Sequence record: HQ641380.1
DNA length: 59,080 bases
Origin: Enterobacter phage EcP1
Direction: 5' to 3' (one strand)
Shown: positions 1-59,080 of the stretch, piece by piece
How the letters are laid out: each line of letters opens with the position of its first letter
Numbering within the stretch: position 1 is the stretch's first letter
Position numbers and translations under genes: made by a program
The notes under the pieces: generated by a model
What the model was told of the DNA's origin: nothing
What the model saw: the letters and a program-made list of their open reading frames with translations, nothing else
Databases searched by the model: none

Positions 1-27
1 ATTCCCTTTATTTTTTTGTAGGCTCAT

Positions 28-2099: not shown

Positions 2100-2100
2100 T

Positions 2101-2560: not shown

Positions 2561-2587
2561 TCTTTAACTTTCAATGAGGAACCAGTA

Positions 2588-29700: not shown

Positions 29701-32700
29701 AGACGCATCTGCTTTAACTGCACTATTACCAAATACTGCATCGTATTTAGCTTTGGCTAATCCCATTGTCATAACGTTATTGATATCCGGATTATCTAAA
29801 AACATTTCCGGAGTAACAGCACGTTTAGCAGTTTCATACAGACGATTAGCCTCAACAGTCTTAAATCCAAATTCATCCAGACCAGCTTTAAGAGAAACCT
29901 GCATCATCTTAAATACCAGCATTTCTTTTTCACTCATATTAAAACCATGAGCGATAAATGAATCTGCTGAGGTATCTACTTCAGGTGAAAGGTTATTAAG
30001 CAGTAATGTATCTTCAAAGGTTTCAATCCCTTCAATTGGCTTACCACGCTGTTTAACCAGATCATAAATACCGTTGGTAACATTCTGGAAAACATTATTA
30101 AGATGGTTCAGATGTTCAATAGAACTGTTACCATCAGATAATCGGTCATACATTGCATTGGCAGTCATGTTATTAACTGCGTCTGCATTCTGCTGATACA
30201 GTGGAGTAGCAGATTCAGATTCTTTAGACGCTTTAACAGAATCAACCAGAGATACTGTGTTACCTAACAATTTAGTAAAGTAACTATTAATACGGGTATC
30301 GGAACCAATAGCAAACAATGATTTGATTGCATCATAGATTCTGGAAATAAACTTAGTTAATTTACCTGAAGATTTATTTGAAGAAAGGGAATCCTGCATA
30401 TGCTGGTTAGTTAATCCCCATGCAACAAATTCGCTTAATGCTTCAAACTTTTCACCATTGCTTAAATGGTCTTCGATTAAATTAATTACTCGTTGCGATT
30501 CATTTGTCTTATCGACATTAGTATCAGCCATAAATTCCTGCATCAGCGATTCCAGATTAGAAATGGAATTACGTGCGTGCTTAGGCATTTTTTCAGGAGC
30601 AGTATAATAATCCTGAATAGCCTGCTGAGTACCCGCATGAATCAGTTCATGAGTAACAGTTTCGATAGATGGATTAGCAACAAAAATATTATTACCGATA
30701 GTCACAGCATTACCATCAAAAGAAAGATTACTGAATAAATCAGGATATTCTTTTCTGAGGTGATCTGAAATCTTATCGATTGAACCAAACTGAATAACAG
30801 TATCGGCAGGAATAAGAGGCATGATTTTACCTAATACATACCGATTAATTTTATTCTGCTGAGTAGGTTCTTTACTGGTTCGCAGTGAAACAATACGATT
30901 AATCGCATCTGCATTAACTGAAGTGAGGCCATTAGCATCAGTAGTACCTAATGCTTTTACCATTTCATTTAATACATTATCAGGAGCAGATACTACACGG
31001 TTAGTTGCTCTGTTTGGTTCAACAGGCAGGTTTACAGAATGCATCCATTTTTCAAGTGGTGTCATAGAGTCGGTAATAATTTCTGATGCTTTCCCAGCAA
31101 CATGATTATTAACAACACCTGAACCTGTCATTTGGTCGATAGATGATGGAATACCTGATTTAAATAAACCATCTTTTAAAGCTTTAACCCGAGCAGCTTC
31201 ATACTGTAAATCCTTCTTGAATTCTGCAATAAATGCAGGGTCAACAGGGTTGGTTAAATTTTCATTCTTCTGCACTTTCTTATATGACTTTTCAAGACGT
31301 GCTATAGCAGCATCAGACAGATTCAGATTATTGAAATCTACCTGAGTACCCTTATCAAATTTAGAGAAGAAATCTGAAAGTAAATCAAAGTTAGCCCATG
31401 AATTGATAACACCATTGTTAATGGCATGACTGCTTTCTGTCATACCGGTAATTGGTGCTTCATAGCCATCAAACACGTTTAATGCAGTATGCGGGTTTTC
31501 CATACGGGCTACAGCCTGCATAGATGCTTCCATAGACTGAACCAATAAAGGCATAGCACGTACACCCGGGTCAGTGAATGTGATAGCCTCAGTGCGGGTT
31601 ACAGCTTTCTTACCGTTAACTTTAGTCATGGATTCAACATTCTTAGAAGTGGAATTTTCTTCAAAACCCATCTCACCAAGATAAATACCCTGACTGTTTT
31701 TAGCAGTATCAGTATTGTTTGCAGTAAGCACTGAATTAAAGATAGGAGCATACTCACTCAGTTCAAAGAAAATATCTTCTACCTGTTTGCGAGATAAGTC
31801 TTCATACTTACTCAGTTCTCCTGCTTCGCGCAGTTCTTTTGTTTTTTCTTCTACTCTCTCGTTAAACTTCTGCAAGAAGATTTCATGCATAAGGTTAGAA
31901 GCATAAACCATCATATTCGCACGTTTAATAATAGTACCAAATTTATCTTTAATTGCTCTATTAACGTACTTACCTAATCCCATAGATACATTAATTCTTA
32001 CTGCACGAATTTGCTCCGGGGTAAAAGAAAATTCACTAACTTTTGTAATTTTAACTGGAGTTCCTACTTCAAAACTTTTAGTCTTAAATACAGTAAGAGG
32101 ATTAATAGCCTGAACCATATTCTGCAACTCGGACAGAATCATTTTCTTCTGATTTACAGATACTGCATTCTTATACTGAAGATTTAAATCACTCAGTTTT
32201 TCATAGAAAGTATCAATAATACCCTTAGCAATTTTATTATTAATTGCTGTAGGGGAACCGGAATACACGGTAACAGTGATTGGATTCTTAAGCAAACCAC
32301 GCTTAATATTCACATCAGTACCAGCATTCTCATTCTGAGTGAGTGTAATATCACCAACGAAATGAGATGCAGCTCTGATAATAGAAGCCTCATGCTCAAC
32401 CAGAGCAATGTCAGATTCCAACATATATTTATTTTTGGTTCCCACCATTTTAGCTACTTCAGCTTTCCATTTAGGTAACTGATTTACCTTGTCGTAGAAT
32501 GCTGTTAAAGCCTGCTGGGAAACTGTAGAAGTATCTTCATACAAATCAGTGAAACCCTTATTGGCTTCTTTGAATGAGTTGTATAACTGACCTTCTTCAC
32601 CAAAGAACATTCCGCCTTTCTTCAAAAGATTAAGCTGATTCTGGCTTAAATCATTTAACCCTAACTGGATAATGGCGTTGAACGGGCCGTTAGTAATACC

Positions 32701-35700
32701 ATCCAGTTCAAGGGTAAGATTTATAGGTACAAAAGTTTGACCAGACTGTTTAGCCAAATCGTAACGAGCCTGTGCATACAGACCATGCATTGATTTAGTT
32801 TTCTCTCCACCTAATTCAACTGCTTTCAGGATTGTCTGACGAATAGCATCATCAGCCTGACCATCATTAAGGATATACTTAATAGCATTGAGAGCAGGTT
32901 TAAAATCAGTAGCGAGCTTATCTGCTAACTGTTTTTCAGAAGTTTCTACAGATTGTTTATCAACTTTAATTCCAAGGCTTTGAGCCACTGCTAAATTAAA
33001 GAAGCGTTCATGCTCTATATTACCTACTTCCACCTGAGAAGGTGGCACAGTAACTAACTCACGATGCAGTTTAGTAGTCTGCGGGTTCCAGTCAGCACTG
33101 GATAAGTTCAGACGATAGTTAACACCTAAGTTATAAGCAAAACGTACTTTTGCTGTAGCAGGATCAATTCCCGCATTATTCATACGGTTCCACCCTGTAT
33201 GCCAACGCTCAATATCATTCGCAACAGTACGATTATATCCTTCGACAGATTTCTCATGCTCTTTATTCAATCCTTCGATAGGCTTAATACCAAGCATATT
33301 TTCTACAAATGGTTCACCCATAATATCAAACAGGAAACTATTTAATTCAGTATTCACAACATGATGCTGTTCAGAAGCTTTACGACGAGATTTAGCCAAT
33401 AATTCAGGAGCTTTCTGGAAGACTCCATTATGAATATTATTATCGGTATATCTTACTGGTTCGTTGAAAGCAGCAGTTTTCTTCTCTCTTTCAGGTACAG
33501 CCAATTCACCAAGAATATCATTGGAATCTTTCAACAGAGTGATAATGTCATTTACTGTCTGGTTATCAGCAACGTTAACAAATACACGAGTATTTTTACG
33601 ATTATCCTCATTAACTAAAGTTGAACCAAGTGATTCAAGTTCACTATTGGAAATGTTAGTAATCTTAAACATGTCCATGTTAACGAGTGTATTGTAAGCA
33701 TCTACTGCAATACCTTTGGATACTGCATCCACTACAGATTGTGGCGCATTTACATCAGGAGAGATTGCCAGAGTTTTCATAATATCTCTGGATAAATCGC
33801 TGAGAATATTATTACGGTCTGTACCAATTTCACCTAATGCTTCCCAATGTTCAGCAGTTGGTTCGGTTTTATTATCCAGACCGAGAATATCCATTACTGC
33901 ACGAGAGTCATTATATTTGACGAGAGGAGCAGATTGACCAAACCAACGCAGAGCATTGAGCGCCATAGAATCGATAACATGTTGTGCAGGTGCATATACA
34001 GTTTCTCCGTTAATTTCACGAGGTACTGAAAAGTATTGAGTAGGATTAGAAGACCAGTAAATACGTTCACCTTCTTTAGGTAAACTATCTACGTTATCAA
34101 AGAATGTTTTACTGAATTTAGTTTTAAAATCTTCGTACTCTTTCAGTACAGAAATTTCGTGTTCTGTTACTTTGAGAGGATCAATATGATTTTTAACTAA
34201 CTCACGCACATCAGTCAGAGGATTAGCTGAGTTCAATGCTTCAGATAATTTCTGACCAAAGTTTTCAGTATTAAATGCAAAGTTTTTATTCTGAGGTTTA
34301 AACCATTTTTTAACCTGATTAGTTGCCAGATATTTTTTATCGATATCAGATATTTTTGCATTAGCTTTTGTCTCAGGAACTACAGTTTCAGCAGGAATTT
34401 CCTGCATAACTTTTTCAGATACTTTGATATCTGTTTTGGTTCCCTCATTGGTAAGGGTAGCAATTTCGTTTTCTGTTTCTGCTACTGGTTCTGCTGTCTG
34501 TGTTTCTTCTTCTTTTGCAGGTACTGCTGTTTCTTCCTGTACGGCATCAGGAGCAGTTTTAATTTCTGCTTGTTCAGTTGCAGGGGCAGACTCTGTAGGC
34601 TTAACAGTAGCTTGCTTAGTCTGTTTTTCAGCATCTACGTAAATAGATTTAAGAGAAGCATAAGCATTAACTACAGCCTGAGCATCATTTTTCATAGATT
34701 CCAGTAATTTCTTACTGCGAACCGGATGTGCTGTCATAGCTGAACCATCAAGAGAACGATATGACTCACCGGTAATAGGGTTAGTAACCACTACAGGCTG
34801 ATCACCACTCTGCATGCTATTCATTACAGATTCAAAAGTATCTGCTTTAGTCTGCATATGGTCTGCGAAACGTCCGAGACGATTAACCTGCTGTAATGCT
34901 ACAGGTAAGTTACCAGAGTTAAGAGCTGAAATAGTTCTCTGCTGATATTCATTAATTCCGGTAAAACCATCTGAACCATTCAGAACATCATTGCTTACAC
35001 CTTCAGTATTCTTCTTCATCTGAGATGCAATTTTTAATTGCTGAACCTGCGCAGGAGTTAATTTAATAGCATCTGCGTGAGTCAGTAATTTATCAATAAT
35101 GCTGGCAGGTACTTTGGTAGCATCCAGATTAACCTGCTGAAGAATAGGGATAACAGATTTATATGTCTCAGGGGTGAAATCACCTGCATCCATTTTGGTA
35201 TTAACTTCCTCAGCAACTTTAGTGATAGCAGCTTCGGACAATGACATACCGCTGAAAGATTTATTGATAAAATCTACCAGAGGACTAGCCATAATTTGAG
35301 AGAATGCATCAATACCAGCCTGATACTGTGCTTTCTGTGCATCATCAGTAGCTGAATTATATGCGTCTGTGTATGCATCAACATAAGCCTGATAAGTATC
35401 TACAGCAATCTTACCGGCAATAATCATGTCACGTTTGGTTGTAGCATCATTTTCAGAAGATTTAATACCATTGATAACACGAGTAAGTACATCAGCAGGA
35501 GCATCAGTATTGATATCTAAATTCTTGAAAGTCTCTTTGGCTTTCTCAGTATGAACCAATGAATCAACAGGTACTGGCTCAGAAACTTTATTTTCTTCAG
35601 GAACAAATTGTTGTGCCTGTTTAGCAGCTTCATTTAATTCAGTAGCCTGTTTCTCTTGTCGTTTGGTTCCCGCTTCTCCGGCACGTTTATTAAGTTGATT

Positions 35701-37230
35701 GGCTACTACATTCATACCGGCAGTAACAGTATTCTGAGCACCGGAACCAATAACAGGAATAGCATGCGCACCGGATACAGTTGCACCCATACCCAAGCCT
35801 GCAATTAATCCCTGAGCACCTGATTGACCTAAACCATCAGTAAGAGATTTATTTTTATCAGCAGTCTGCACACCAACGTTAGAAGCAAACTGACCTGTAA
35901 CGCCCTGACCTAATTCTTCAGTACCTTCTTTAACGATACCACCAACTTTTGCACGGACACCTTGCAATGAACCTCTGTTCAGAGCATTGCCTTCAAAATT
36001 AGCAGCACCGGTTAATTTAGATACAAGCATACCTGAAGCACCGGCAATTAATGCGGTCTTATCCGTAGCTAATCCAATTACTCGTTGTTTAGCAATTTCA
36101 GGGGAGTTACCAGCATCAATGAAATCACGATAAGCTTCTGAATTTTTCATCAGATCTTCATGACTCATTTTAAAAATTTCATCACGAGCCTGATCAGCAT
36201 TTGAGAAGCCTTCGGTTAAACCAATATAACCTAATGCTGCTTTCTCGGATGCTTTCATTAATTCTTTCTTACCAACTTCTGTAGCCAGATACTCAGCAGC
36301 TTTTTCTTTACCTAAATTCTGAGTAATACCTTTTACAGTAGTTTTGAGTGCAATCTTACCTACCGCACCAGCAGTAAGCAGATCAGGTGCAGATTCAGCG
36401 GTATCAGTTAATGCAGCAACAGGGTTATCAGTATAGTTACCTAAAGTATCAAAAAATTGCTGTGCCTGATTAATAGCTTCAGAGAAACCAGCATTCATAC
36501 CAGAATTGATACGATCTTTACTTTCTTTCTCACGTAATTTTTTGGATTCTTCATTATCCATTTCCTGACGTTTTTGTTGGAACTGTGCAACATCAGAATA
36601 ATTTTCTTTACGGTCTTCTACCCACTGAGCTAATTTCTGAGTAGCTCCATCTTTAGTCTGGTCTAAACCACCATAACCTAATGCATCAATAACCGCATCT
36701 TCACCACCATCAATGACAGAGGCTACATCACGCAGTACTTCGTTAGCTGTACGGTCTAACATATCTACTAAGCCAAGACCCATACGACCAGTCTGACCAG
36801 CCCAAACAGTAGCAGCGTTAGCAACGTCACCAGCAGCTTCACCTAAATTATATGGGATATTATCCATACGATTGGTTTCTGCTTCCTGAAGTGCATTGAC
36901 GCGTTTTAAATCGGTACTGTCTGTACCATATACAGAATCAAACGTATTAGCAGGCATACCTGTCAGATATTCTGAGAATTGATTAGCAGGAGTAGGCTGC
37001 TCTGGCTGAACCAAATTACCCTGATTATCAGTTACAGGAATATCATTAACAATTGCAGGAGTCTCTACAGTAGGTTGCGGTACGGTCAACTGAAGTAACT
37101 CATTCTCTTTGTTATTAAAAATAGTATCCATAGATTCTCTTTTCTGAGAACCTGCATACTCAAGCATGCCCTGCTTTGTGTTCTGTACTGCCTCATTTCT
37201 TTTGAGGTAGTCTTCAAAAGGATTAGCCAT
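26722..37230 (-). CDS. virion-encapsidated giant RNA polymerase (N4 vRNAP-like)
   Basis: About 3500 aa single ORF; T7-like motif A DGITNGPFNAIIQ and motif B KNPITVTVYSGS in its centre; start set at MANPF (AGGGGA RBS) rather than the upstream ATG at 37296. Confidence 0.8.
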   Translation of the reverse strand: MANPFEDYLKRNEAVQNTKQGMLEYAGSQKRESMDTIFNNKENELLQLTVPQPTVETPAIVNDIPVTDNQGNLVQPEQPTPANQFSEYLTGMPANTFDSVYGTDSTDLKRVNALQEAETNRMDNIPYNLGEAAGDVANAATVWAGQTGRMGLGLVDMLDRTANEVLRDVASVIDGGEDAVIDALGYGGLDQTKDGATQKLAQWVEDRKENYSDVAQFQQKRQEMDNEESKKLREKESKDRINSGMNAGFSEAINQAQQFFDTLGNYTDNPVAALTDTAESAPDLLTAGAVGKIALKTTVKGITQNLGKEKAAEYLATEVGKKELMKASEKAALGYIGLTEGFSNADQARDEIFKMSHEDLMKNSEAYRDFIDAGNSPEIAKQRVIGLATDKTALIAGASGMLVSKLTGAANFEGNALNRGSLQGVRAKVGGIVKEGTEELGQGVTGQFASNVGVQTADKNKSLTDGLGQSGAQGLIAGLGMGATVSGAHAIPVIGSGAQNTVTAGMNVVANQLNKRAGEAGTKRQEKQATELNEAAKQAQQFVPEENKVSEPVPVDSLVHTEKAKETFKNLDINTDAPADVLTRVINGIKSSENDATTKRDMIIAGKIAVDTYQAYVDAYTDAYNSATDDAQKAQYQAGIDAFSQIMASPLVDFINKSFSGMSLSEAAITKVAEEVNTKMDAGDFTPETYKSVIPILQQVNLDATKVPASIIDKLLTHADAIKLTPAQVQQLKIASQMKKNTEGVSNDVLNGSDGFTGINEYQQRTISALNSGNLPVALQQVNRLGRFADHMQTKADTFESVMNSMQSGDQPVVVTNPITGESYRSLDGSAMTAHPVRSKKLLESMKNDAQAVVNAYASLKSIYVDAEKQTKQATVKPTESAPATEQAEIKTAPDAVQEETAVPAKEEETQTAEPVAETENEIATLTNEGTKTDIKVSEKVMQEIPAETVVPETKANAKISDIDKKYLATNQVKKWFKPQNKNFAFNTENFGQKLSEALNSANPLTDVRELVKNHIDPLKVTEHEISVLKEYEDFKTKFSKTFFDNVDSLPKEGERIYWSSNPTQYFSVPREINGETVYAPAQHVIDSMALNALRWFGQSAPLVKYNDSRAVMDILGLDNKTEPTAEHWEALGEIGTDRNNILSDLSRDIMKTLAISPDVNAPQSVVDAVSKGIAVDAYNTLVNMDMFKITNISNSELESLGSTLVNEDNRKNTRVFVNVADNQTVNDIITLLKDSNDILGELAVPEREKKTAAFNEPVRYTDNNIHNGVFQKAPELLAKSRRKASEQHHVVNTELNSFLFDIMGEPFVENMLGIKPIEGLNKEHEKSVEGYNRTVANDIERWHTGWNRMNNAGIDPATAKVRFAYNLGVNYRLNLSSADWNPQTTKLHRELVTVPPSQVEVGNIEHERFFNLAVAQSLGIKVDKQSVETSEKQLADKLATDFKPALNAIKYILNDGQADDAIRQTILKAVELGGEKTKSMHGLYAQARYDLAKQSGQTFVPINLTLELDGITNGPFNAIIQLGLNDLSQNQLNLLKKGGMFFGEEGQLYNSFKEANKGFTDLYEDTSTVSQQALTAFYDKVNQLPKWKAEVAKMVGTKNKYMLESDIALVEHEASIIRAASHFVGDITLTQNENAGTDVNIKRGLLKNPITVTVYSGSPTAINNKIAKGIIDTFYEKLSDLNLQYKNAVSVNQKKMILSELQNMVQAINPLTVFKTKSFEVGTPVKITKVSEFSFTPEQIRAVRINVSMGLGKYVNRAIKDKFGTIIKRANMMVYASNLMHEIFLQKFNERVEEKTKELREAGELSKYEDLSRKQVEDIFFELSEYAPIFNSVLTANNTDTAKNSQGIYLGEMGFEENSTSKNVESMTKVNGKKAVTRTEAITFTDPGVRAMPLLVQSMEASMQAVARMENPHTALNVFDGYEAPITGMTESSHAINNGVINSWANFDLLSDFFSKFDKGTQVDFNNLNLSDAAIARLEKSYKKVQKNENLTNPVDPAFIAEFKKDLQYEAARVKALKDGLFKSGIPSSIDQMTGSGVVNNHVAGKASEIITDSMTPLEKWMHSVNLPVEPNRATNRVVSAPDNVLNEMVKALGTTDANGLTSVNADAINRIVSLRTSKEPTQQNKINRYVLGKIMPLIPADTVIQFGSIDKISDHLRKEYPDLFSNLSFDGNAVTIGNNIFVANPSIETVTHELIHAGTQQAIQDYYTAPEKMPKHARNSISNLESLMQEFMADTNVDKTNESQRVINLIEDHLSNGEKFEALSEFVAWGLTNQHMQDSLSSNKSSGKLTKFISRIYDAIKSLFAIGSDTRINSYFTKLLGNTVSLVDSVKASKESESATPLYQQNADAVNNMTANAMYDRLSDGNSSIEHLNHLNNVFQNVTNGIYDLVKQRGKPIEGIETFEDTLLLNNLSPEVDTSADSFIAHGFNMSEKEMLVFKMMQVSLKAGLDEFGFKTVEANRLYETAKRAVTPEMFLDNPDINNVMTMGLAKAKYDAVFGNSAVKADASGKSNRLANFLALAATNEQFRNILDNLAGYQPKKSEPVGLKENIEYYVGLVMSKVSGLAGKSGVSGTIGSRLDKLNRNLSHFDAESRQSILNKIEDKAAELAQPYEDKIQGVRDTIADAMLKGAASDKLNKYVKIAVAPTAAVAASIASEQAAGAVREGVSNFINNLYDKKLGAFGELVQEMLGTNDANKVIHDMKDHTAMVQEKARQVLREEVPEIIESQYVSLDKESKQAIQRSVINSDMSYLYANGYDITKLKTLVEDNAALTKEIKDIEAKIDAVQPDTEIATFYKKSALGLGQQIVTGVSPMPYQLPNARSIAHVIGTGKSVANVNIPVAAAPLIDTLASLYAIQKTDSVSKNKLLEVMNQEMSKDPENNGLTFTMNYYNMLKKEEVSKLDVDGSFAAPKGYSPSLGNPNKKVVIAPLSQRSDLIAKGYVMGNQVARDPSDFNREPMYYFQSNEGANPRWVSGVMSTLRHTIAGVDPYAGQTINGVNTVSYTGSQAAKMTEAKRNAMQSMFDSNVAVPVEGNYMQPMVDRNGAVVSYSYQMDFANRDARLETSNDFAENMGAWEGRILEESMADKFNATLVDVLKATYEKDMKEGKADQYIEVSGKSSDPQIREIYRLMPPEMKSHIKEQIVSGKLFIRKDLLNNALGYRMPSVTELWNKNSEELNAFQRVFKDVASNILGDKAAVYLSRGERGWKEFVSNAKDWIVVRSVVVSAANIISNMVHLATVGVSPIQMAKDISLATVAAEDFRKNEREIIRLSHLIQLGQNPSEQGKYKSRLSELRDKQARNPLAPLIAEGLLPAISEKFDTDDFGYKGQLMKKLEGITSKIPTGISNVGKNILITKDSATYAVLNKSIQYGDFVAKYSLYKKLTTQRNPLSHEQALTRVKDEFVNYNILPSRTRSYLEAIGATWFLNYKIRIQKILIRTLRENPIKVLMMLSGINSVPNIFDANAITGSFSYNLGFGNMFNGITAHPLWGAGGDLVRIIR

Positions 37231-37321
37231 TTTATCCCCTGTTAAAAATGAAAAAAGGTTTGTTGATATCTTACATTTAAAATGAAGAACCAACAAACCT
37301 AATATATAGCTTAAAGTGTAA

Positions 37322-49197: not shown

Positions 49198-51150
49198 TTA
49201 CTTATTGGTACACACAATCTCTACATTAAACTCAACACCATCTGGCAAGGAACTGATAGCAATTGGAGCCATAGTGGTCATATCGATCAGGTACAAATAT
49301 GCAGCACCTGTTGATACGCCAGACTGGTTGTAGAATGGTACAAGCTGATACTTATAGCCACTTGCTTGGTTAAGGCTCTGGGTGAAGATATAAGGATGCC
49401 AGTTACCAGAACCGGGTGTGTAGTTAATCTTAAGAGCAAAGCCACTATCAAAAGGCTCTACGCTTTGCACACCCTGCGGTGAGTATGGGTTTGTATTGAC
49501 TACGAAAGATCCATTACGCTTAGTCAAGCGGCAGATACGACGAAGGCCAATAGCATTGGTTTCCTGCGACTGAAATTTAGGCATTATGACGTTACTCAGA
49601 TTACCTAAATCAATCTCTTTAGGTTTGATGTTAGTCTCAAGAATGTTGTCACGCCCATCAGCACCACGAATGCTTGCAAGGTACTGACCTTGCTCACCGT
49701 AATAGCTGTAATCCCACACAAAATGCTTGAAGTGGTTCATACCACCACCATCTACCTGAATAGCCCATTTGCTTGTAGCCGACCACTGTTGGATAGAGTC
49801 AAACTCAAGCTGTCCTAACTGTGTATAGTATGGGTACTGACCAGCAACTTTAGGGACACATTTAACTGTAATACCATAATCAGCCATGATGATGTTATTC
49901 TTAAAGCTGCAAGCAGTCATCCAGTTAGTAGCCTCTGTGTAAGTAGCATCATCTGTAGGCTCATATGCTTCAATGTATAGGCCGTATTTACCATACTCAA
50001 GACTTAATCCATCAAAGCGACACCAGCATATTGAGTTACTACGCTTAATAGGGTTATTGGTACCATCACGTACGTTATCAAGACGTATACGTAATGAAGT
50101 ACCTAGACGTTCATTATAGTTAGGAAGAAGTTTTACATTCTCAATGGTTAAGTTGCGCAAGTTATTCTTACCAAGTACAAGAGCAACGTTATGATCCCAG
50201 CCCATTAGTTGTGAATCGACAGCTATACGCCCACCACCACGCTTGTCGCTACGGAAGTAGATGTTATCTGTCTCAAATACAAACATATCATCACGCAACG
50301 ATCTGTTAATAATTTGTGAACCAGATTTAAACAAAAAGTTCTTTTTAACATTTATTTTAGTATTGCAATCATAAGAACCGGCTGGAATTACAATTACATT
50401 AACTAAACTTTCATTCTGGAGATCTGCAAGTAATTGACCTATATCTGAACCAAATACTGCCCCTACAGTTCTTATATCTATGCTACCATCTGTAATTCTT
50501 TTTGCAGTCAGGGTATCATTAATACTAACATCTAATAAAGTTGCTGTAGCATTAGTTACATAATACTGTGCTGCACCACCGTCATTAATTGAATTGAATC
50601 CAGAAGTTATTACAAACGTACCTTCAGTAAAACTACCTGATTTTATATGCGCAGCTGTGTCTACATATACAGTGTTAGTACCACCGCTTTCAGTGTTTAT
50701 ATTAACCCACTTATTAAGTGCTTCTCCGCCTGTTGATGCAATTGTAGAATTAGGTGGTACAACTTTATTCAATTCACCATTCCAGCGATACAGACTTTTT
50801 TCAAAAGAAACAACCTGTGTCTTATCAGTTAATGTAAAACCTTTTGAAAAGGTTACATTATACAGAATGTGGTAATTACCGAATTTTAAATTATGTTCAG
50901 TAAGGTCTAATGTTTCTTTATCTGTAGTTAAAACAGGAGCAGAAAATGTAAAAATCTCTGAACCAATTAATTCGGGTAATAACCAGAATGTAGAAGTCTT
51001 GTTATCATAAATGCCTTTGACATTTAATAATTTGGTTCCTGCTTTAGCATATACCACTTCACTGTCATGAAGTCCGAATGAACGAGCTAAAGATAGCATA
51101 TTAGTAGTATGTGCAGTTGAACCGCGAGTTTGATCAAATAATTTTTTCAT
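49198..51150 (-). CDS. tail spike / receptor-binding protein with beta-helix (depolymerase-like) domain
   Basis: 650 aa; repetitive N/G/T/S-rich beta-strand pattern typical of a right-handed beta-helix; adjacent to a tail fiber gene. Confidence 0.5.
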   Translation of the reverse strand: MKKLFDQTRGSTAHTTNMLSLARSFGLHDSEVVYAKAGTKLLNVKGIYDNKTSTFWLLPELIGSEIFTFSAPVLTTDKETLDLTEHNLKFGNYHILYNVTFSKGFTLTDKTQVVSFEKSLYRWNGELNKVVPPNSTIASTGGEALNKWVNINTESGGTNTVYVDTAAHIKSGSFTEGTFVITSGFNSINDGGAAQYYVTNATATLLDVSINDTLTAKRITDGSIDIRTVGAVFGSDIGQLLADLQNESLVNVIVIPAGSYDCNTKINVKKNFLFKSGSQIINRSLRDDMFVFETDNIYFRSDKRGGGRIAVDSQLMGWDHNVALVLGKNNLRNLTIENVKLLPNYNERLGTSLRIRLDNVRDGTNNPIKRSNSICWCRFDGLSLEYGKYGLYIEAYEPTDDATYTEATNWMTACSFKNNIIMADYGITVKCVPKVAGQYPYYTQLGQLEFDSIQQWSATSKWAIQVDGGGMNHFKHFVWDYSYYGEQGQYLASIRGADGRDNILETNIKPKEIDLGNLSNVIMPKFQSQETNAIGLRRICRLTKRNGSFVVNTNPYSPQGVQSVEPFDSGFALKINYTPGSGNWHPYIFTQSLNQASGYKYQLVPFYNQSGVSTGAAYLYLIDMTTMAPIAISSLPDGVEFNVEIVCTNK

Positions 51151-52304
51151 TGAATTTCCTCAACACCTAAATTGCCATTTTCTATTTTTAATTTATAGGA
51201 TTTTAATGTAACTGAATCTTTTAAAATTATGTCATGTTTATTTAGTTCAATCCAAAGACCTAACGGATTTAAATAATTGAATATACCTCCATCAGTATTA
51301 ATCTGATCTGCGGCTACAGTATTTTCATTGATGTGTTTAGGATATACACCAATCCACTGATACCATTTTTTAGAAACACTGTCATAAATGTGATCATTAA
51401 TGGTACGCAAAGTTGCACCGCCTTTGAAAGTGTACCCAGACATTACATTAGGCAGCAGTAATGAATGCACATCTCCACCAATCTGAATAACTACAAAGTC
51501 ATTTTCTTTTACTGGTTCACGAAGCTGTACTAACCCTTCGCTGTTCCACGTAAAATGATACTGAGGTTCTTTACGCAATCCATTAATAAATACTGCTACA
51601 ACAGTTTTAAAGTTGTATGGCGGACGGAATGTTTGCTCACCACCGTTTGCTTTACCGTTATTGTAAACCCAGTTGAAATATTTAAAATTATCCACATTAG
51701 GTGTTTCAGGATCAGCCGGTAAACCAGACAACATAGCAATAACAGTATCACCTTCTTCCAAAGGTTGAGCTAAACGGATGGTCTGGCTTAACTCATCATA
51801 TTCAAAACCTAAACGAGGGTACTGATAATTACCATTTACATAAATACAGGTAACAGCCGCAGTCTGCTCAGGAACAATAATAGATTCCTCTCCACCTTGT
51901 GCAGAACCATTATTGTACACCCATGCAATATCACGAGAACCATCACCGCCTGTACCGGCAGAGGATGTTCCAACTTTAATCCATGAACCAGAATACTGAA
52001 TGCCATTAGGTTTGATGCCACTTTCATCATTATCAATGAAAGCATAATCGACGTATCGCTTCTCTAAACCATCCAGTTCATAAATACGGGCAAAGCGTAC
52101 CTGTTTAGCATCGATATTTTTAAGCTGCTCTACAGATTCAACACAGGCCAACATATTATATTGGGTAAGCATGTCATAGATTGTTTTGATGTAGTGCATG
52201 TTATCGGCAACAAACTTAACAGTCTGATAAGCAGTACCGATAAATTTCTGCACTAAACCTGCATTACCACAATCATGCGGGTAGTTATTCATCATTATAG
52301 CCAT
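51147..52304 (-). CDS. tail fiber / adaptor protein
   Basis: 385 aa; overlaps the start of the tail spike gene. Confidence 0.4.
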   Translation of the reverse strand: MAIMMNNYPHDCGNAGLVQKFIGTAYQTVKFVADNMHYIKTIYDMLTQYNMLACVESVEQLKNIDAKQVRFARIYELDGLEKRYVDYAFIDNDESGIKPNGIQYSGSWIKVGTSSAGTGGDGSRDIAWVYNNGSAQGGEESIIVPEQTAAVTCIYVNGNYQYPRLGFEYDELSQTIRLAQPLEEGDTVIAMLSGLPADPETPNVDNFKYFNWVYNNGKANGGEQTFRPPYNFKTVVAVFINGLRKEPQYHFTWNSEGLVQLREPVKENDFVVIQIGGDVHSLLLPNVMSGYTFKGGATLRTINDHIYDSVSKKWYQWIGVYPKHINENTVAADQINTDGGIFNYLNPLGLWIELNKHDIILKDSVTLKSYKLKIENGNLGVEEIQ

Positions 52305-53008: not shown

Positions 53009-54616
53009 TTATACAAGGTAGTTGTCCATAGGAGATGAAAGATCTTCATAAGAATCTTCCGTATAATATCTTCCGGCTGTTCCTACATTAGGATTATAAC
53101 TTACTCCGTCAAATGGTTTAACAGGATTCATTAACGGAAGCATAGAAATTGTATCGATACAGTCGTCATGTTTTGATTTAAACCCGCCAACCATAGCCAT
53201 AGACAATTCTTCCAACATTTCTACCATCAGTGGAGTATCTTTCATTTCGATAGGGAAATGAATCTTACCTAATTTAAATAATGGCAATGCCATTAAGAAA
53301 CGAGTCATTTTATCAGAAGCAGGGCGAATACCTGGCTGTTTGCTATTATTCGATGAAGCGAGTTGAAACCATATACTACGGAGCATCATCTCTCTCTGTA
53401 TTAGTGATATAAACCCTGCCTGCTGACCGGATACTTCCACACCGGCAGACTGCACATTATATGCTGGAACCAATCTGAATAACTCATCAAACGCCACATC
53501 GATAGTAGCTTTGGCACACCAACCATCTACCAGATACCAATCTCCTTGTGAGCTATACGCCCACACTGGTATAACGGAAAAGTCGTTTACCTGTTTACCA
53601 CCTACAGAGAAGTCAGAAGTGCTATAGAAAGTGTAATTTTGCGGATTAGTCATTAAATCCTTTCTGGAATACCACTTTATTTCATTGTCCTGAATTAATT
53701 TATCTTCATCAGAGGCGATACGTAACATGTATTCCTGATAGAATGCAGCAAGTTTACCCTGCTCTAAAGCAAACTCATACTCTCTCTTAACGAAAGAGTA
53801 CGGGAACCGGTCTTCCCATGCGCCTTTAAATTCTTTTTCCTCACAAGGGAATTTCTCACAAAGTGGGTATACGTTAACTACCCATGCTCCGGATTCAACC
53901 GCTTCATATAAAATATCTCGCTTATTAAATGGAGTACCGTTGAATATAACCTTACGCTTAAGCGGACTTAATGCAGGTAGTACGCCTTTATACACAGTGT
54001 CATTGATGGTAGCCATAGATGCCTTAGAGTTAGCATCCTCATCACTTACCAGATCATCCAGTACTGCTAATACAGGTCGTTTACCAAATATTTTGGAACC
54101 ACGAATACCAGTCTTAGCACCAAACATCTTCAAGCCAAACTTATTACCTTCCTGATTCACAAACTCAATATAGTTATCTGTAAATTTATATTGAGGAATC
54201 ATATTGAGAAGGAAGTCAGATGAATGGAATCTATGCTCCATATTCTTACGTAAGTTCTTAACACCGTTATCCATAGAGTCACTTACGTAGATAGCACCCG
54301 GTACTGAACCAAAATTAGGCAAGTCTCCGAATACGCCGATGTATAAAAACAGGTATTCAGCAAATACGGTAGTCTTTGCCATACCACGCGCGCATAAGTT
54401 AGCTACATATGGGTTAGGATCAACAATACCTTCCAGCATTTTTAAATGAACAGGAGGTGTTTTGTTTTCCTCGCCTTCTTCACCATTTACTAATTTAATG
54501 AATGAAACAAATTCAATAGCAAATTCGGTAGGAATGTATCGTTCATTTATATGAGCGTAGTCAACCGTATTAAGCCAATCGTCTACAGTTTTCTTCTTTG
54601 GTTGCAATATTGGCAT
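53009..54616 (-). CDS. terminase large subunit
   Basis: 535 aa; Walker A-like ARGMAKTT and Walker B VLAVLDDLVSDE; C-terminal nuclease-like region. Confidence 0.7.
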   Translation of the reverse strand: MPILQPKKKTVDDWLNTVDYAHINERYIPTEFAIEFVSFIKLVNGEEGEENKTPPVHLKMLEGIVDPNPYVANLCARGMAKTTVFAEYLFLYIGVFGDLPNFGSVPGAIYVSDSMDNGVKNLRKNMEHRFHSSDFLLNMIPQYKFTDNYIEFVNQEGNKFGLKMFGAKTGIRGSKIFGKRPVLAVLDDLVSDEDANSKASMATINDTVYKGVLPALSPLKRKVIFNGTPFNKRDILYEAVESGAWVVNVYPLCEKFPCEEKEFKGAWEDRFPYSFVKREYEFALEQGKLAAFYQEYMLRIASDEDKLIQDNEIKWYSRKDLMTNPQNYTFYSTSDFSVGGKQVNDFSVIPVWAYSSQGDWYLVDGWCAKATIDVAFDELFRLVPAYNVQSAGVEVSGQQAGFISLIQREMMLRSIWFQLASSNNSKQPGIRPASDKMTRFLMALPLFKLGKIHFPIEMKDTPLMVEMLEELSMAMVGGFKSKHDDCIDTISMLPLMNPVKPFDGVSYNPNVGTAGRYYTEDSYEDLSSPMDNYLV

Positions 54617-55299: not shown

Positions 55300-55468
55300 A
55301 TCAAGTAATTCCTATCAGTGATTTTTAATTAGTCTATCAGCTACCTTTAAGTAAAAAAAGTACTAGACAATTTATTTCACTGTTGTATATTTAACTCAAG
55401 CAAACGTTCCTCAAGGAAAGTTAAAGAGCGAGTTCCCGCCACTCGTGCTAAAAAGGCGGAACAATTTA

Positions 55469-55543
55469 GGTAAGTTAGCTAATAGGTGAAGCACCTGACT
55501 GTTAATCAGTGATAGAGTGGTTCGATTCCACTACTTACCGCCA
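55469..55543 (+). tRNA. tRNA-Asn (GTT), tentative
   Basis: Acceptor GGTAAGT/ACTTACC, T-arm AGTGG-TTCGATT-CCACT, anticodon loop CTGTTAA, encoded CCA; one mismatch in the anticodon stem and a 3 bp D-stem. Confidence 0.5.
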
Positions 55544-55546
55544 TTT

Positions 55547-55623
55547 CGGGATATAGCTCAGTTTGGTAGAGTGTCTGCTTTGGGAGCAGAATGTCGTTGG
55601 TTCAAGTCCAGCTATCCCGACCA
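55547..55623 (+). tRNA. tRNA-Pro (TGG)
   Basis: Cloverleaf: acceptor CGGGATA/TATCCCG, D-arm GCTC..GAGT, anticodon loop TTTGGGA, T-arm GTTGG-TTCAAGT-CCAGC, encoded CCA. Confidence 0.75.
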
Positions 55624-55627
55624 ATTA

Positions 55628-55704
55628 GTGCCTTTAGCTCAGACGGTTAGAGCAGCCGACTCATAATCGGTAGGTCACAGGTTCAAATCCTGTAGGGCGC
55701 ACCA
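55628..55704 (+). tRNA. tRNA-Met (CAT)
   Basis: D-arm GCTC-AGACGGTTA-GAGC, anticodon loop CTCATAA, T-arm ACAGG-TTCAAAT-CCTGT, acceptor AGGGCGC, encoded CCA. Confidence 0.75.
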
Positions 55705-55739
55705 GAAGTTGCCATATGTCTTTCTCCCGAAGACCGTTT

Positions 55740-55763
55740 AGCCCCTACGTTAAGGGGCTTTTT
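55740..55763 (+). terminator. terminator after the tRNA cluster
   Basis: AGCCCCT-n6-AGGGGCT followed by TTTTT. Confidence 0.55.
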
Positions 55764-55784
55764 CATAACTATAGGAAAGTGATT

Positions 55785-55901
55785 ATGCTTACATTTGTGA
55801 TAGGTATTTTAATTGGTTTAGTTGTCGGTACTTATGTTACTGCTACAAAACCTGAATGGTATAAACCCTTAATCAAAAAAATTAATGGTATCAAGAAATG
55901 A
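55785..55901 (+). CDS. small membrane protein (38 aa)
   Basis: AGGAAA RBS; MLTFVIGILIGLVVGTYV TM helix; the longer track ORF would span the terminator. Confidence 0.35.
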   Translation: MLTFVIGILIGLVVGTYVTATKPEWYKPLIKKINGIKK

Positions 55902-56233
55902 ATTTCATCGACATTGAAACAGGTACTCAGGAAGTTGAAGCAGTACAAATTCAGAAGCAACTCAATGTGTATTATCCTCAATGGTTCGTAAATGCTCAGG
56001 CAAAAGGCCACATTAAAGTAAACAAAGAAGAACGCACATTTTCCATTACCCGCTACGGGCAGGAAATTAAAGCGTACATCAATGATTTTATTTTAATGAA
56101 ACCTAACGGTACATTCGAAGTAATGCCACCAATGCAATTCAGAGAAACCTATGAACGAAAAGAAGATCGACGAGCTGCTGAAGAAAAAGCAAGAGTTATG
56201 CGAGAGTATCTCAAACCTCGACAGACAGCTTGA
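55898..56233 (+). CDS. hypothetical protein
   Basis: 111 aa ORF; its 3' end overlaps an alternative-frame 45 aa ORF. Confidence 0.45.
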   Translation: MNFIDIETGTQEVEAVQIQKQLNVYYPQWFVNAQAKGHIKVNKEERTFSITRYGQEIKAYINDFILMKPNGTFEVMPPMQFRETYERKEDRRAAEEKARVMREYLKPRQTA

Positions 56234-56284
56234 TGAATTAACTGACGAACTATCTTCAGTTATTAAATCAATCAACGAATTACA

Positions 56285-56310
56285 AAGCCGCGAATAAGCG
56301 GCTTTTACTT
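56285..56310 (+). terminator. terminator-like hairpin
   Basis: AAGCCGC-GAATAA-GCGGCTT followed by TTTAC. Confidence 0.4.
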
Positions 56311-56324
56311 AGGAATAAAAACAT

Positions 56325-56648
56325 ATGGCTAAAACATTATACAGAATCTGTGTGGGACGCAGAGACGGCATCCGTGTCATAGAAGGTACGGCAAACAGAC
56401 AGACCCCGCAGGCATACTGCTCTATCACTTCAGATGGCATATTCGGATTATCTTCCATACCAAAAAGTGTATTAGAGCAAATCAAATTTGGCGATAACTT
56501 CTGGAATACATCTATCTATACAGATGAACCAAGTAAGATTGAACCAATGAAAGAAAAACTATCCGCCTATCTGAAGGGTAAGTACATAATGTACAAAGCG
56601 GAAACCACTAAAGAATTAAACGATATGGAGAAAGTAATCAATGGCTAA
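56325..56648 (+). CDS. hypothetical protein
   Basis: 107 aa ORF. Confidence 0.45.
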   Translation: MAKTLYRICVGRRDGIRVIEGTANRQTPQAYCSITSDGIFGLSSIPKSVLEQIKFGDNFWNTSIYTDEPSKIEPMKEKLSAYLKGKYIMYKAETTKELNDMEKVING

Positions 56649-56964
56649 TTTATGGTTAGTACAAATAAAAAATAATGCAATTAAAGTTGATATCGTAGAA
56701 GCAGATGAAACACCAAAGATGTATCGCAACATTCGCGGCAGTGATGATATTTGGATACGTTCAGTACGCAAAGCTGATTTAGATATGGTTATGTCTTCTT
56801 ATGGTTCAAACAAGCATGGCTATGCTGACTCGCGTGAATGTGCTGAGAAGCTAATTGCTGCAATGAAAGATAAAGTCATGCATGAAGCTGAACATAATCT
56901 TAAACAAGCTAATAAGCAGATACAGTTAGCTGAACTGCTACAACAACAAAAGGTAGTATTCTAA
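56641..56964 (+). CDS. hypothetical protein
   Basis: 107 aa ORF, overlapping start/stop. Confidence 0.45.
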   Translation: MANLWLVQIKNNAIKVDIVEADETPKMYRNIRGSDDIWIRSVRKADLDMVMSSYGSNKHGYADSRECAEKLIAAMKDKVMHEAEHNLKQANKQIQLAELLQQQKVVF

Positions 56965-57242
56965 TGATATTCCGTAAAGGTAGTTTAATACCTAAATGGT
57001 TAAACATTGTTGACATTCATCGTTCAGTAAGACACAAGGTTAAGTTTGGTTGTGATGTAGAGTTAGTTAAGTTAGGTTCAGGTAATGAACCAACTATAAT
57101 CAAACGGGTTGATCCTACATATCCAGCTAATACTTTACCTATGGTTCATATTGAAAACTTAGCTGGCATTAAACAGAAGAACGGAACATATAAAAAGATA
57201 AATGGAATAGGCATTCGTGAAGTTGTTATTGAATGGCCTTAA
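56964..57242 (+). CDS. hypothetical protein
   Basis: 92 aa ORF. Confidence 0.4.
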   Translation: MIFRKGSLIPKWLNIVDIHRSVRHKVKFGCDVELVKLGSGNEPTIIKRVDPTYPANTLPMVHIENLAGIKQKNGTYKKINGIGIREVVIEWP

Positions 57243-57483
57243 ATGAATAAAGGAAAGGACTCCTTTAATGATTGAATTAATTAGATAGTTTATTGAATAA
57301 ATATTTATTATTTTTATTCTACTTTTTGAAATAATTAGGTATGAGTTCAGTACACTGGTAATTCACACTCTCACGTCACACTAAACTACCCCCCCCCACT
57401 TCACACTATAATGACTCTACGAGTCTCGTGGGAGTATTGTCGCTCTCATCTTAACTATCTTTAACTTTCCTAGGAGTGTTACC
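57243..57483. promoter_or_regulatory. AT-rich non-coding region with two stem5/loop3 hairpins, a poly-C9 tract, TTCACACT x3 and a TATAAT box
   Basis: Hairpins AAAGG-ACT-CCTTT (57255-57267) and GACTC-TAC-GAGTC (57414-57426); C9 at 57390-57398; TTCACACT at 57363/57377(GTCACACT)/57402; TATAAT at 57408. Confidence 0.4.
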
Positions 57484-57810
57484 ATGTCTTTAGCTAAAAC
57501 TGTATCTATGACTTCTGCTATGTCTACCTCTGTTGTTGCAACGTTAGGTGCTGTACAAACTACTGCAATGGCTATCAATAATACTGCAACTGCTGCTGCT
57601 CATGCTACTGGTTGGCTGGCTGATGAAATCGCTGCTGCTGCTGATGATCGTGCTCATCGTCGTGTTGTTACTCGTGAAATCAAACGTTATACATTCGTCG
57701 CTGAAGCTGGTGTAGAGTTATCCGAAGCTCTTAAAGCTATGGAAGCTACTCGCTCTCAGCTCACTGATGATGTTAAAGCTCAGTTCGATGCAATCATTAA
57801 TGCAAAATAA
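57484..57810 (+). CDS. Ala-rich small protein with strongly biased (NNT) codon usage
   Basis: 108 aa; GGAG RBS; codon usage (gct/tct/act/gtt) distinct from the rest of the window; own upstream region and downstream terminator. Confidence 0.6.
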   Translation: MSLAKTVSMTSAMSTSVVATLGAVQTTAMAINNTATAAAHATGWLADEIAAAADDRAHRRVVTREIKRYTFVAEAGVELSEALKAMEATRSQLTDDVKAQFDAIINAK

Positions 57811-57839
57811 TTCTATCTAATTAATCTCAATTGAGATTG

Positions 57840-57869
57840 GGCTACTCCTATGAGTAGCCTTTATTTTTT
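57840..57869 (+). terminator. strong rho-independent terminator
   Basis: GGCTACTC-CTAT-GAGTAGCC followed by TTTATTTTTT. Confidence 0.8.
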
Positions 57870-57907
57870 ACTGTCTACTAGACAGAATACTACTAAGGAT
57901 ATCTCTC

Positions 57908-58333
57908 ATGAAATCTAAGACTGGTTATATTATCGGTACTCTTAAGAAGCGTAATGAATCTCTGTCTCAAGAGAATGACAAACTTAAAGATGAAGTAGAA
58001 AGACTGAACGTGGAACTTAGTGAAGCTGCACATAATATTAAAACTATGCAGGACTTCGCAAGCAAGAACCAAAGTGAATTAATTAATAAAGATAATCAGA
58101 TTCGTAATTTAGCTAAATCTCTGATGTATAAAGATGAGCGTAATACTAAACGAGATGTTTTATTGAAAAAGTATGACGCTGATAATAACAGGCTAAGTTT
58201 TGAATTATTTGAACAGACTACTGAAACTGAAAAGTGGAAGGAGAAGTATGAATCCTTACTTAAGTACGTAAGAAATATTGGTATCACTATCGTTATCTTC
58301 GGTTTAATCATTCTGTTCACTCAATACATGTAG
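57908..58333 (+). CDS. coiled-coil protein with C-terminal transmembrane anchor
   Basis: 141 aa; heptad-rich K/E sequence and C-terminal ITIVIFGLIILF. Confidence 0.5.
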   Translation: MKSKTGYIIGTLKKRNESLSQENDKLKDEVERLNVELSEAAHNIKTMQDFASKNQSELINKDNQIRNLAKSLMYKDERNTKRDVLLKKYDADNNRLSFELFEQTTETEKWKEKYESLLKYVRNIGITIVIFGLIILFTQYM

Positions 58334-58341
58334 GAATCAAT

Positions 58342-58521
58342 CATGTTCAATAACTTCTTCACAGGTATTGCTGTTATCAATGGGACAGCATTAGTAATTT
58401 ACTTTCTGATATGCGTGCTAGCTAATACAAAAACTCATATGTCACGAGTACTTCTGTACATCGTAATCTATACATTGGTATTCGCTACATTAGCTGCATG
58501 GTCTAAAGGAATACTTGTATA
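58342..58521 (+). CDS. small two-TM membrane protein (59 aa, not in the track)
   Basis: AGGAA RBS; hydrophobic helices GIAVINGTALVIYFLICVL and LLYIVIYTLVFATLAAW. Confidence 0.35.
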
Positions 58522-58757
58522 ATTATACAGTATCTTAATAGCTCCTGTATCGCATTCTAACGAGAGATAGCTCAGGGATGAGCATTGCTATAGAGAAATG
58601 GAGATCGTCAAGCTGGATGTCACTACATTCTGTTTAATCATATCTCCTTTTCTTTCTCTATCACTGTCTCTCTTAAACTAATATCTGCCTTAAACTCTAT
58701 CTCAAAATCTATCATTCCAACTTAACTCAACTTAAAGTTTAACTTTCAGGAGACTCC

Positions 58758-59080
58758 ATGTTTAATCTCATCCAAGGAGACATATTTAAACAACAAGCTG
58801 ATGCTGTGTGTATTACTACTAACGGTAATATACGTTCAGATGGCAGAGCTGTAATGGGTGCTGGCATAGCTAAGACATTCAGAGATTTGTTTCCTACCTT
58901 AGATTTAGAGTTAGCTGAATCACTGAGAACCAAAGGAAACATATGCACTGTACTAAGACAGCATTTCAATGGTGTATACATAATTGCTTTCCCTACCAAA
59001 CATAATTGGAGAGATAATTCATCTCTGGAACTGATAAAACAATCTGCTATACAACTTATTGAAATAGCAGACTCACTAAA
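58758..59080 (+). CDS. macro domain (ADP-ribose binding/processing) protein, 3' partial
   Basis: AGGAGA RBS; ADAVCITTNGNIRSDGRAVMGAGIAKTF matches the macro domain core (N..N, G.GI/VA); the ORF runs off the window end. Confidence 0.55.
   Translation, partial: MFNLIQGDIFKQQADAVCITTNGNIRSDGRAVMGAGIAKTFRDLFPTLDLELAESLRTKGNICTVLRQHFNGVYIIAFPTKHNWRDNSSLELIKQSAIQLIEIADSL

Follow-up and report, generated by a model that had tools for sequence, protein, structure and literature searches.

A non-coding gap in the genome of Enterobacter phage EcP1 with the predicted left end and first hairpin promoter of an N4-like phage

The deposited sequence of Enterobacter phage EcP1 (HQ641380.1), analyzed here over its full length of 59,080 nucleotides (nt) and called the window below, contains a 241-nt non-coding gap at positions 57243 to 57483, which extends from the stop of a 92-amino-acid (92-aa) open reading frame (ORF) to the ATG at 57484. 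We consider it likely that in this gap the right end of the unique sequence of an N4-like phage meets the single assembled copy of its direct terminal repeat, and that the gap also carries the first hairpin promoter of the early region. The hairpin's architecture, its recurrence elsewhere in the early region, the conservation of the surrounding bases, and the permuted state of the assembly can all be read from the sequence and carry this interpretation. A first-pass annotation of the window had suggested a terminus plus early promoter of a permuted N4-type assembly, a suggestion supported here by the permutation, by homology of the first downstream gene to N4 gp1, by the architecture of one of the two hairpins that it singled out, and by a CAGTA...C9 arrangement that matches related phages.

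By protein comparison, the window phage is a member of a divergent N4-like podophage lineage in the Schitoviridae. Its virion RNA polymerase (vRNAP), a 3524-aa ORF on the minus strand (26722 to 37296), aligns to N4 gp50 with the catalytic residues D559, D951, K670, R666, and Y678 conserved and with 27% identity in the polymerase domain, and its terminase protein TerL (53009 to 54616, minus strand) shares 59% identity with N4 gp68. TerL matches 481 phage records, every one at less than 60% identity, and its best match beyond its own 99% cluster in a collection of 5.8 billion proteins is 63% identical; megablast and blastn searches of the gap region against 50,697 phage records returned no nucleotide match. 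It is the relationship of vRNAP and TerL to N4, together with the distance of TerL and the empty nucleotide searches, that leads us to this placement.

Gene order around the gap follows that of N4. Genes lie on the plus strand up to ∼26.5 kb, on the minus strand from 26.7 to 55.3 kb, and then on the plus strand again, where the right arm carries three tRNAs and then small ORFs up to the gap; Rfam models identify these three tRNAs only and no RNA family in the gap. The succession of terminase operon, tRNAs and small ORFs, gap, and gp1 homolog is the same as in N4. The first ORF after the gap (57484 to 57810, plus strand) encodes 108 aa, as does N4 gp1, and matches the PHROG family phrog_5020 over its full length (E = 2e-23; N4 gp1 matches the same family at 1.3e-46). 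BLASTP of this protein against N4 gp1 gave no alignment and Pfam no significant family, and the link to N4 gp1 comes from the PHROG profile only; by that profile the ORF is homologous to gp1, which in N4 is the leftmost gene and whose product acts together with gp2 as a cofactor of middle transcription (PMC4496689). The gp1 gene lies within ∼120 to 160 nt of the mapped or deposited left end in N4, IME11, G7C, Zuri, and JWAlpha.

The exact 108-aa sequence is present on ∼20 contigs assembled from public sequencing runs (Logan), six of them longer than 50 kb and the longest 66.8 kb. On these contigs, ∼10 kb of small plus-strand early ORFs come after the gap, then a gp2 homolog, and next the RNAPII genes with which the window starts. 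On the relative L001, the last base of the window (59080) falls at 11595 and its first base at 17267, and because the segment between these two points has no counterpart in the window, the window assembly is, by this alignment, permuted and incomplete, with ∼5.7 kb of the early region missing. The ends of the Logan contigs themselves were considered as markers of physical ends and rejected, their positions being arbitrary: de Bruijn assembly turns a terminally repeated genome into a circle, and contig ends are therefore uninformative about physical ends.

All of the elements that the first-pass annotation listed in the gap were found: hairpin 1 (AAAGG at 57254 to 57258, ACT at 57259 to 57261, CCTTT at 57262 to 57266), three plus-strand copies of [TG]TCACACT (57362 to 57369, 57375 to 57382, and 57400 to 57407), a plus-strand C9 run (57389 to 57397), a TATAAT (57407 to 57412), and hairpin 2 (GACTC at 57413 to 57417, TAC at 57418 to 57420, GAGTC at 57421 to 57425). 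There is also a plus-strand GTACACT akin to the TCACACT copies (57350 to 57356) and an AT-rich spacer (57268 to 57347), predicted to form the right-hand extremity of the unique sequence, where it borders the terminal repeat in virion DNA. The spacer has TTAGATAG at 57281 to 57288, and N4 TTAGATAG and ATAGATAG of the metagenomic lineage L013 lie at a similar distance from the end. Plain hairpins with a 5-bp stem and 3-nt loop occur 12 times in 55300 to 59080 plus 1 to 3000 (6.8 kb), and two such hairpins are therefore unremarkable alone. The C9 run is the sole run of seven or more C or G residues in all 59,080 bp. TCACACT itself occurs six times in the whole window on both strands, versus 8.4 expected, with three of the six copies clustered inside 45 nt on one strand.

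The physical left end can be predicted by comparison with phages whose ends are defined. From N4, IME11, G7C, Zuri, LUZ7, and LIT1 we derived an end rule in which CAGTR lies 2 to 3 nt outside the end and a run of at least six C residues starts ∼29 to 33 nt inside it. For IME11 the ends come from high-frequency read starts (PMC3896407), for LUZ7 and LIT1 from run-off sequencing, and for Zuri and G7C from the terminal repeats annotated in their records; the deposited N4 sequence includes the repeat once, ending ...GTGAGTTCAGTATT and beginning TGGTGGGGCTACACC...CA-C9-TG. With the end marked by a slash, the junctions read ..ttCAGTAtt/TGGTGGGG in N4 (C9 starting at nt 32), ..taCAGTGgtg/TGGCTGGGG in IME11 (C7 at nt 32), ..ggCAGTGtg/TACACCC in Zuri (C7 at nt 33), ..tgCAGTActt/CAGTAACGG in LUZ7 (C7 at nt 29), and ..tgCAGTAct/TCAGTCTG in LIT1 (C7 at nt 30). 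CAGTR, 2 to 3 nt, and the end follow one another in all five of these phages, and G7C contributes the C-run position only (C7 at nt 32).

The window has both parts of this signature, with CAGTA at 57348 to 57352 (plus strand) and the C9 run at 57389 to 57397, in an N4-like position directly 5′ of the gp1 homolog and 3′ of the terminase-side right arm. CAGTA, 3 nt, and TGGT line up with the mapped N4 end TGGTGGGG, and the predicted window junction is ..ttCAGTAcac/TGGTAATTC, with C9 starting at about nt 33 to 35. Among close relatives CAGTACACTGG is invariant and the bases just 5′ of CAGTA vary. Because the junction comparisons fit and conservation begins exactly at CAGTA, we place the predicted left end, and with it the start of the direct terminal repeat, at about 57355 to 57357 on the plus strand, using the CAGTR-N2-3 rule and the distance to the C run; the terminal repeat would then have been collapsed to a single copy in the window assembly. 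Alignment with the left ends of related phages had been proposed as a check on the terminus reading, and it supports that reading through the match of CAGTA...C run to five defined-end phages. Exact-pattern scans for the terminal motif found no match in JGI metagenome contigs and L027's contig only in IMG/VR.

The C run belongs to a module found across the family. From the end inward, this module has two or three YACAC repeats, a C run usually followed by GGT, about 25 to 30 nt, the block CCTACCCCACCTT, more YACAC repeats, and then the P1 hairpin, which starts at ∼nt 86 to 90 in seven lineages; the window lacks a separate second block, and its hairpin begins at nt 58, counted along the predicted genome. 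Runs of C6 to C9 at nt 29 to 33 occur in N4, G7C, IME11, Zuri, LUZ7, LIT1, L027, L041, and L042, and metagenomic lineages with TerL identities of 53 to 62% (L013, L016 to L020, L023 to L027, L041, and L042) have a C6 to C8 run at the equivalent position 5′ of the first early gene, most of them with a first hairpin 3′ of the run. Pantoea phage G19 also has a C run; its record (PV483189, our L034) holds three C7 runs in the early region, two of them as CCCCCCCGGT, and only the last precedes a gp1-like ORF. A marine-type IMG/VR group (L019 to L026) departs from the pattern in that C8 is followed ∼45 nt on by a GGGGCCCC or GGGGGCCCCC palindrome in place of the 3-nt-loop hairpin, with repeated CAGGTT(A/T)T motifs upstream (L019, L020, and L023 to L026); the palindrome may be a different type of first promoter.

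The repeats around the run also correspond. N4 has cTACACc and tTACACc before its C run and gTACACg and tTACACg before P1, the arrangement is alike in G7C, IME11, Zuri, L013, and L042, and the L027 copies are of the TCACACT type; the window's TCACACT copies correspond to the YACAC repeats on either side of the C run in relatives. The two flanks of the window's C9 match different elements, the left one the first run of L027 (TCACACTAAA(G/C)TA-C7/9) and the right one (ACTTCA) Zuri's second block, and MAFFT placed the C9 on the second C-rich block rather than on the first run. We therefore favor a fusion or deletion over simple one-to-one homology: the C9 is probably two C runs fused by a deletion of ∼31 nt. 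Because its distance from the end is fixed, the C run most likely helps terminase to recognize or position the left-end cut; as an alternative, it could serve to hold the leading DNA end in the tail. Neither this regularity nor the literal string CCCCCCCGGT turned up in a relevant form in the literature searched for C runs near N4-like ends, a search whose coverage did not reach older subscription papers.

Hairpin 2 is predicted to be the first early promoter, P1. In N4, vRNAP promoters are template-strand hairpins with a 5- to 7-bp stem and a 3-nt loop 5′-G-R-A-3′ closed by C:G, recognized through -11 (A or G, the loop center), -10 G, -8 G, and a template +1 C (PMC4496689), and the genes that vRNAP transcribes are gp1, gp2, and gp15 (PMC13434306). 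In LUZ7, the mapped early promoters consist of a 3-nt loop on a stem of 4 bp or more, and transcription starts at a G 13 to 14 nt 3′ of the hairpin center (PMC9163698). On the template (minus) strand, hairpin 2 (57413 to 57425) reads 5′-GACTC-GTA-GAGTC-3′, with a 5-bp stem, a GNA triloop, and C:G closure, and its spacing to the downstream GG is the same as in N4 P1 and P2. The DNA fold has an energy of -4.1 kcal/mol (z = -2.5).

We scanned for the non-template image of this architecture, TNC loops with C:G closure on stems of at least 5 bp. In N4, exactly three sites lie in the left 9 kb, upstream of gp1, gp2, and gp15. The window contains two C-TNC-G hairpins, counting both strands together, and each of the eight close relatives of sufficient length contains exactly three sites, all on the plus strand and all intergenic, with none on the opposite strand in 20 kb. 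The three sites are P1 itself (GACTC-TAC-GAGTC tcgtGGGA), upstream of the gp1 homolog; a second (L001 15563 to 15575, GCCTC-TAC-GAGGC tggtGG), which precedes a DUF7279 ORF and a DprA-like ORF; and a third (L001 16778 to 16790, GGCAC-TAC-GTGCC tcatGGGA) just upstream of the gp2 homolog. L002 to L007 and L010 have equivalents of the second and third sites, that of the second in L003 with a TGC loop and a 6-bp stem. Only P1 lies in the window, and the other two sites fall in its missing ∼5.7 kb; a search for the motif elsewhere in the genome, which the first-pass annotation had recommended, is thus answered by two more sites in the early region of relatives. Stem positions 2 and 4 show compensating changes among the three sites, which share an unvarying loop, closing pair, and T-N-N-T-GG tail as well as the stem bases -9 C, -7 C, and -5 G. 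When a 20-kb relative was shuffled with its dinucleotide content preserved, 0.28 sites arose on average (0.037 if only plus-strand sites with a TAC loop are counted), versus 3 observed. Together, these observations support hairpin 2 as a predicted vRNAP promoter of N4 architecture.

Transcription from P1 is predicted to start within the GGG at 57430 to 57432 (plus strand), 11 to 13 nt 3′ of the loop center at 57419; the N4 rule points to G57430 and the LUZ7 rule to 57432 to 57433. On the template strand, P1 fits the N4-specific -10 G, -12 A, and -9 C and the predicted +1 C, and the -8 base across the clade's three sites is T, T, and A. Given its departures from N4 at -11 and -8 (below), P1 would probably act like an N4 promoter with altered specificity, likely unreadable by N4's own enzyme. 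A word-indexed search of the 5.8-billion-protein collection with the 108-aa protein returned its own 98% cluster only and yielded no intermediate relatives.

These elements can be combined into one model. A weak stem-loop and the AT-rich spacer would close the right-arm operon, and CAGTA would mark the cut site of the packaging nuclease for the left end, 2 to 3 nt downstream. The first ∼60 nt of the genome, with YACAC-type repeats and C9 ∼34 nt from the end, would form a family-conserved cis-element, by which terminase may position its cut. Beyond it, the inverted repeat would be extruded as the template hairpin GACTC-GTA-GAGTC and used as P1 by the injected 3524-aa vRNAP, with starts at G57430 to G57432, and the transcript would carry an epsilon-like leader, a Shine-Dalgarno sequence, and the gp1 homolog and would stop at a terminator at 57839 to 57870.

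Several observations weigh against this model. At the promoter, the template strand's DNA fold of lowest energy (-4.1 kcal/mol) is an alternative with two helices rather than the plain 5-bp hairpin, and P1 has T at both -11 and -8, where N4 vRNAP needs a purine and a G, respectively. The vRNAP residues aligned to N4 D901 and R904 also differ, in an alignment at 27% identity only, and P1 is identical in all recovered close relatives, with covariation seen only between the three paralogous sites. At the terminus, the predicted end and terminal repeat, like the predicted start of transcription, are placed by homology, and the predicted cut puts the C run at nt 34 to 35, slightly beyond the 29 to 33 of the defined-end phages. 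The JWAlpha record begins 5 nt before its C run; either its record start is not a mapped end or the rule has exceptions.

The alternative that fares best is that P1 is real and the physical ends lie elsewhere, for example in the divergent region at 55300 to 55468 upstream of the tRNAs, with CAGTA...C9 inherited and no longer marking a cut. We regard this as unlikely. It can draw on the slightly displaced C run, on a lineage that has lost ∼31 nt of the conserved terminal module, on an end that is predicted by homology rather than mapped from reads, and on the fact that no Logan contig ends at the predicted site; the last point carries little information, since terminally repeated assemblies circularize. 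It has to set aside the alignment of CAGTA, 3 nt, and TGGT with the mapped N4 end, the onset of conservation in relatives exactly at CAGTA, and the closeness of gp1 to the left end in the five phages named above, and the region at 55300 to 55468 is without a C run. In our comparisons the alternative has no positive support.

A host sigma-70 promoter, with the TATAAT as its -10 element and a repressor or activator acting on the three TTCACACT repeats, had also been suggested for the gap, and a perfect TATAAT beside repeated 8-mers ∼13 nt apart is what such a regulatory region might look like. Conservation speaks against it: TATAAT is found in the window and in the relative L007, and in 8 of the 10 recovered relatives the same position reads CTCTCAT or CTATCAT. 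A consensus scan called no -35/-10 pair at the site, there being no -35 hexamer, in phages whose termini are defined the same YACAC repeats border the physical end, and N4 early genes are transcribed by the injected polymerase rather than by the host enzyme (PMC4496689, PMC13434306). We find this explanation very improbable.

We give equally little credence to the idea that the C9 is a slippage-prone contingency locus that varies expression of the downstream gene; the first-pass annotation had raised phase variation or slippage for such tracts. Long homopolymers do slip readily, and one of the 10 recovered relatives (L007) has C10, which in a short-read assembly may be an error; the other nine, and N4, have C9. 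The run lies outside any ORF and is not a promoter spacer, and C6 to C9 runs kept at a fixed distance from the end across several subfamilies indicate selection for the run itself.

The first-pass annotation had set both hairpins beside the N4 promoter type, and hairpin 2 fits that type, with its GNA loop and its two recurrences in the early region; hairpin 1 does not. That both are vRNAP promoters is barely credible: each fits the bare 5-bp stem and 3-nt loop, a type found 12 times in 6.8 kb, and hairpin 1 has a template loop AGT rather than GNA, a wrongly oriented closing G:C, no TNNTGG tail, a position upstream of the predicted genome end, and a stem disrupted in relatives, where base 57256 changes from A to T and breaks the 5-bp stem (L001 and L009) or from A to G and leaves a G:T wobble. 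We rejected hairpin 1 as a vRNAP promoter on its loop and its disrupted stem. Hairpin 1 sits within a longer plus-strand stem-loop (TAAAGGA, AAGGAC, TCCTTTA; 57248 to 57267) directly 3′ of the stop of the 92-aa ORF, which as RNA folds into a 7-bp stem with a 6-nt loop that is not better than shuffles (z = -0.9) and in which the variable base 57256 sits in the loop. Two of the seven pairs are G:C and no U tract follows the stem-loop, which therefore lacks the GC-rich stem and U run of an intrinsic terminator. It is retained even in relatives without the 92-aa ORF and may be a weak 3′ stem-loop of the right-arm operon. The 92-aa ORF itself (phrog_29107; 56964 to 57242, directly 5′ of the gap) is missing from L002, L003, and L010, in which the indel boundary directly precedes the AAAGGA...TCCTTT stem-loop.

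Downstream of P1, the gp1 5′ leader (57433 to 57483, plus strand) contains TTTAACTTTC (57460 to 57469) and a Shine-Dalgarno AGGAG (57472 to 57476), and the gp1 homolog is followed by an intrinsic terminator (57839 to 57870, plus strand) of the form GGGCTACTC-CTAT-GAGTAGCCT and then a T run. TTTAACTTTC has four exact copies in the window, at 2563 to 2572, 57460 to 57469, and 58738 to 58747 on the plus strand and 55416 to 55425 on the minus strand. Three of them, in front of the RNAPII large subunit, the gp1 homolog, and a Macro-domain ORF, end 11 to 16 nt 5′ of the start codon and have AGGAG after them; tolerating one mismatch raises the number of matches to 17, versus 10.2 expected. We take the element to resemble the T7 gene 10 "epsilon" translational enhancer TTAACTTTA.

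The third of these copies closes a second non-coding stretch of 236 nt (58523 to 58758), which lies 5′ of the Macro-domain ORF and ends in a TTTAACTTTC-AGGAG leader; scans of this stretch gave no GNA hairpin, Rfam match, or sigma-70 call. The Macro-domain protein in the window (58759 to 59080; weak Pfam match) and Macro-domain and DprA-like (DNA_processg_A) proteins in the early region of L001 (11273 to 11713 and 15823 to 16344; also weak Pfam matches) may have host-takeover or anti-defense roles, judging from their domains. Tail-spike genes by the terminase operon (∼49200 to 52300 in the window; ∼200 to 5000 in L001 to L009) differ strongly among relatives that are otherwise 93 to 98% identical, and those of L001 to L009 share a Tail_spike_N head with varied bodies, for example Exo_endo_phos or GDPD domains, which looks like host-range module swapping.

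If the predicted end and promoter are right, they would fix the biological start of this genome and identify its first early promoter together with the gene it serves. A left end with a hairpin promoter, which the gap very probably represents, is expected of the N4-like family, and the family-wide end signature is a modest additional finding. In a lineage this distant that still follows the N4 strategy, a GTA-loop promoter that breaks two N4 recognition rules would be a natural variant for studying promoter specificity and its coevolution with the polymerase, N4-like genomes from metagenomes could be oriented and re-opened with the CAGTR/C-run rule, and the C run itself is a candidate cis-element for end formation.

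The closest known system is the left end of N4 (NC_008720 nt 1 to 153), with its P1 hairpin GTTGC-TTC-GCAAC at 90 to 102. The window shares with it, in the same order, CAGTA, the cut, TGGT, YACAC repeats, C9, further YACAC repeats, a GNA-loop hairpin closed by C:G, 4 nt, GG, a leader, a 108-aa gp1, and a terminator; N4 likewise has a terminator-like hairpin with a T run between gp1 and P2. The two differ in the template loop (GTA in the window, GAA or GGA in N4) and in the stretch that separates the C run from the CCTACCCCACCTT block, which the window lacks, so that its hairpin begins at ∼nt 58 versus nt 90 in N4, and they have no detectable overall nucleotide similarity. IME11 end reads start (TG)TGGCTGGGGCTACAC, with CAGTGgtg before this point and C7GGT (at nt 32) and the P1 hairpin after it, and its 401-bp repeat ends inside gp1; in IME11 the ends are measured and both C-rich blocks are kept, whereas in the window the end is predicted and the blocks are apparently fused. 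LUZ7 resembles the window in having hairpin promoters with a 3-nt loop and a G start, including a TAC-loop candidate at 792 to 802, although its promoters were mapped by ONT-cappable-seq (PMC9163698) and that of the window is predicted from sequence. The termini of LUZ7 and LIT1 are also similar in having CAGTA 2 to 3 nt before the end, followed by C7GGT starting at nt 29 to 30; unlike the window phage, both have GC-rich genomes, with repeats of 655 to 660 bp.

Runs of C at left ends extend to podophages of another family. T7 has C5 (NC_001604 nt 26 to 30), T3 C8 (NC_003298 nt 26 to 33), phiKMV C5 (NC_005045 nt 26 to 30), and SP6 C4 (NC_004831 nt 28 to 31). These phages also have short direct terminal repeats, but they belong to a different family and use host sigma-70 and T7-type promoters, and in the T7 group the run is followed by (A/G)TAGG, compared with GGT in N4-like phages. 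We tentatively suggest, with rather less than even confidence, that CAGTR-N2-3, the cut, ∼30 nt, and a C run of at least six form a bipartite end-formation signal of the Schitoviridae, whose C-run half (∼26 to 33 nt from the left end) would be common to T7-, T3-, phiKMV-, and SP6-type podophages. If so, it would point to a common way of recognizing or measuring the left-end cut, or of holding the leading DNA end in the tail, among short-terminal-repeat phages. The T3 sequence, aaagtaCCCCCCCC, is much like that of the N4-like contig L027, aaagtaCCCCCCC.

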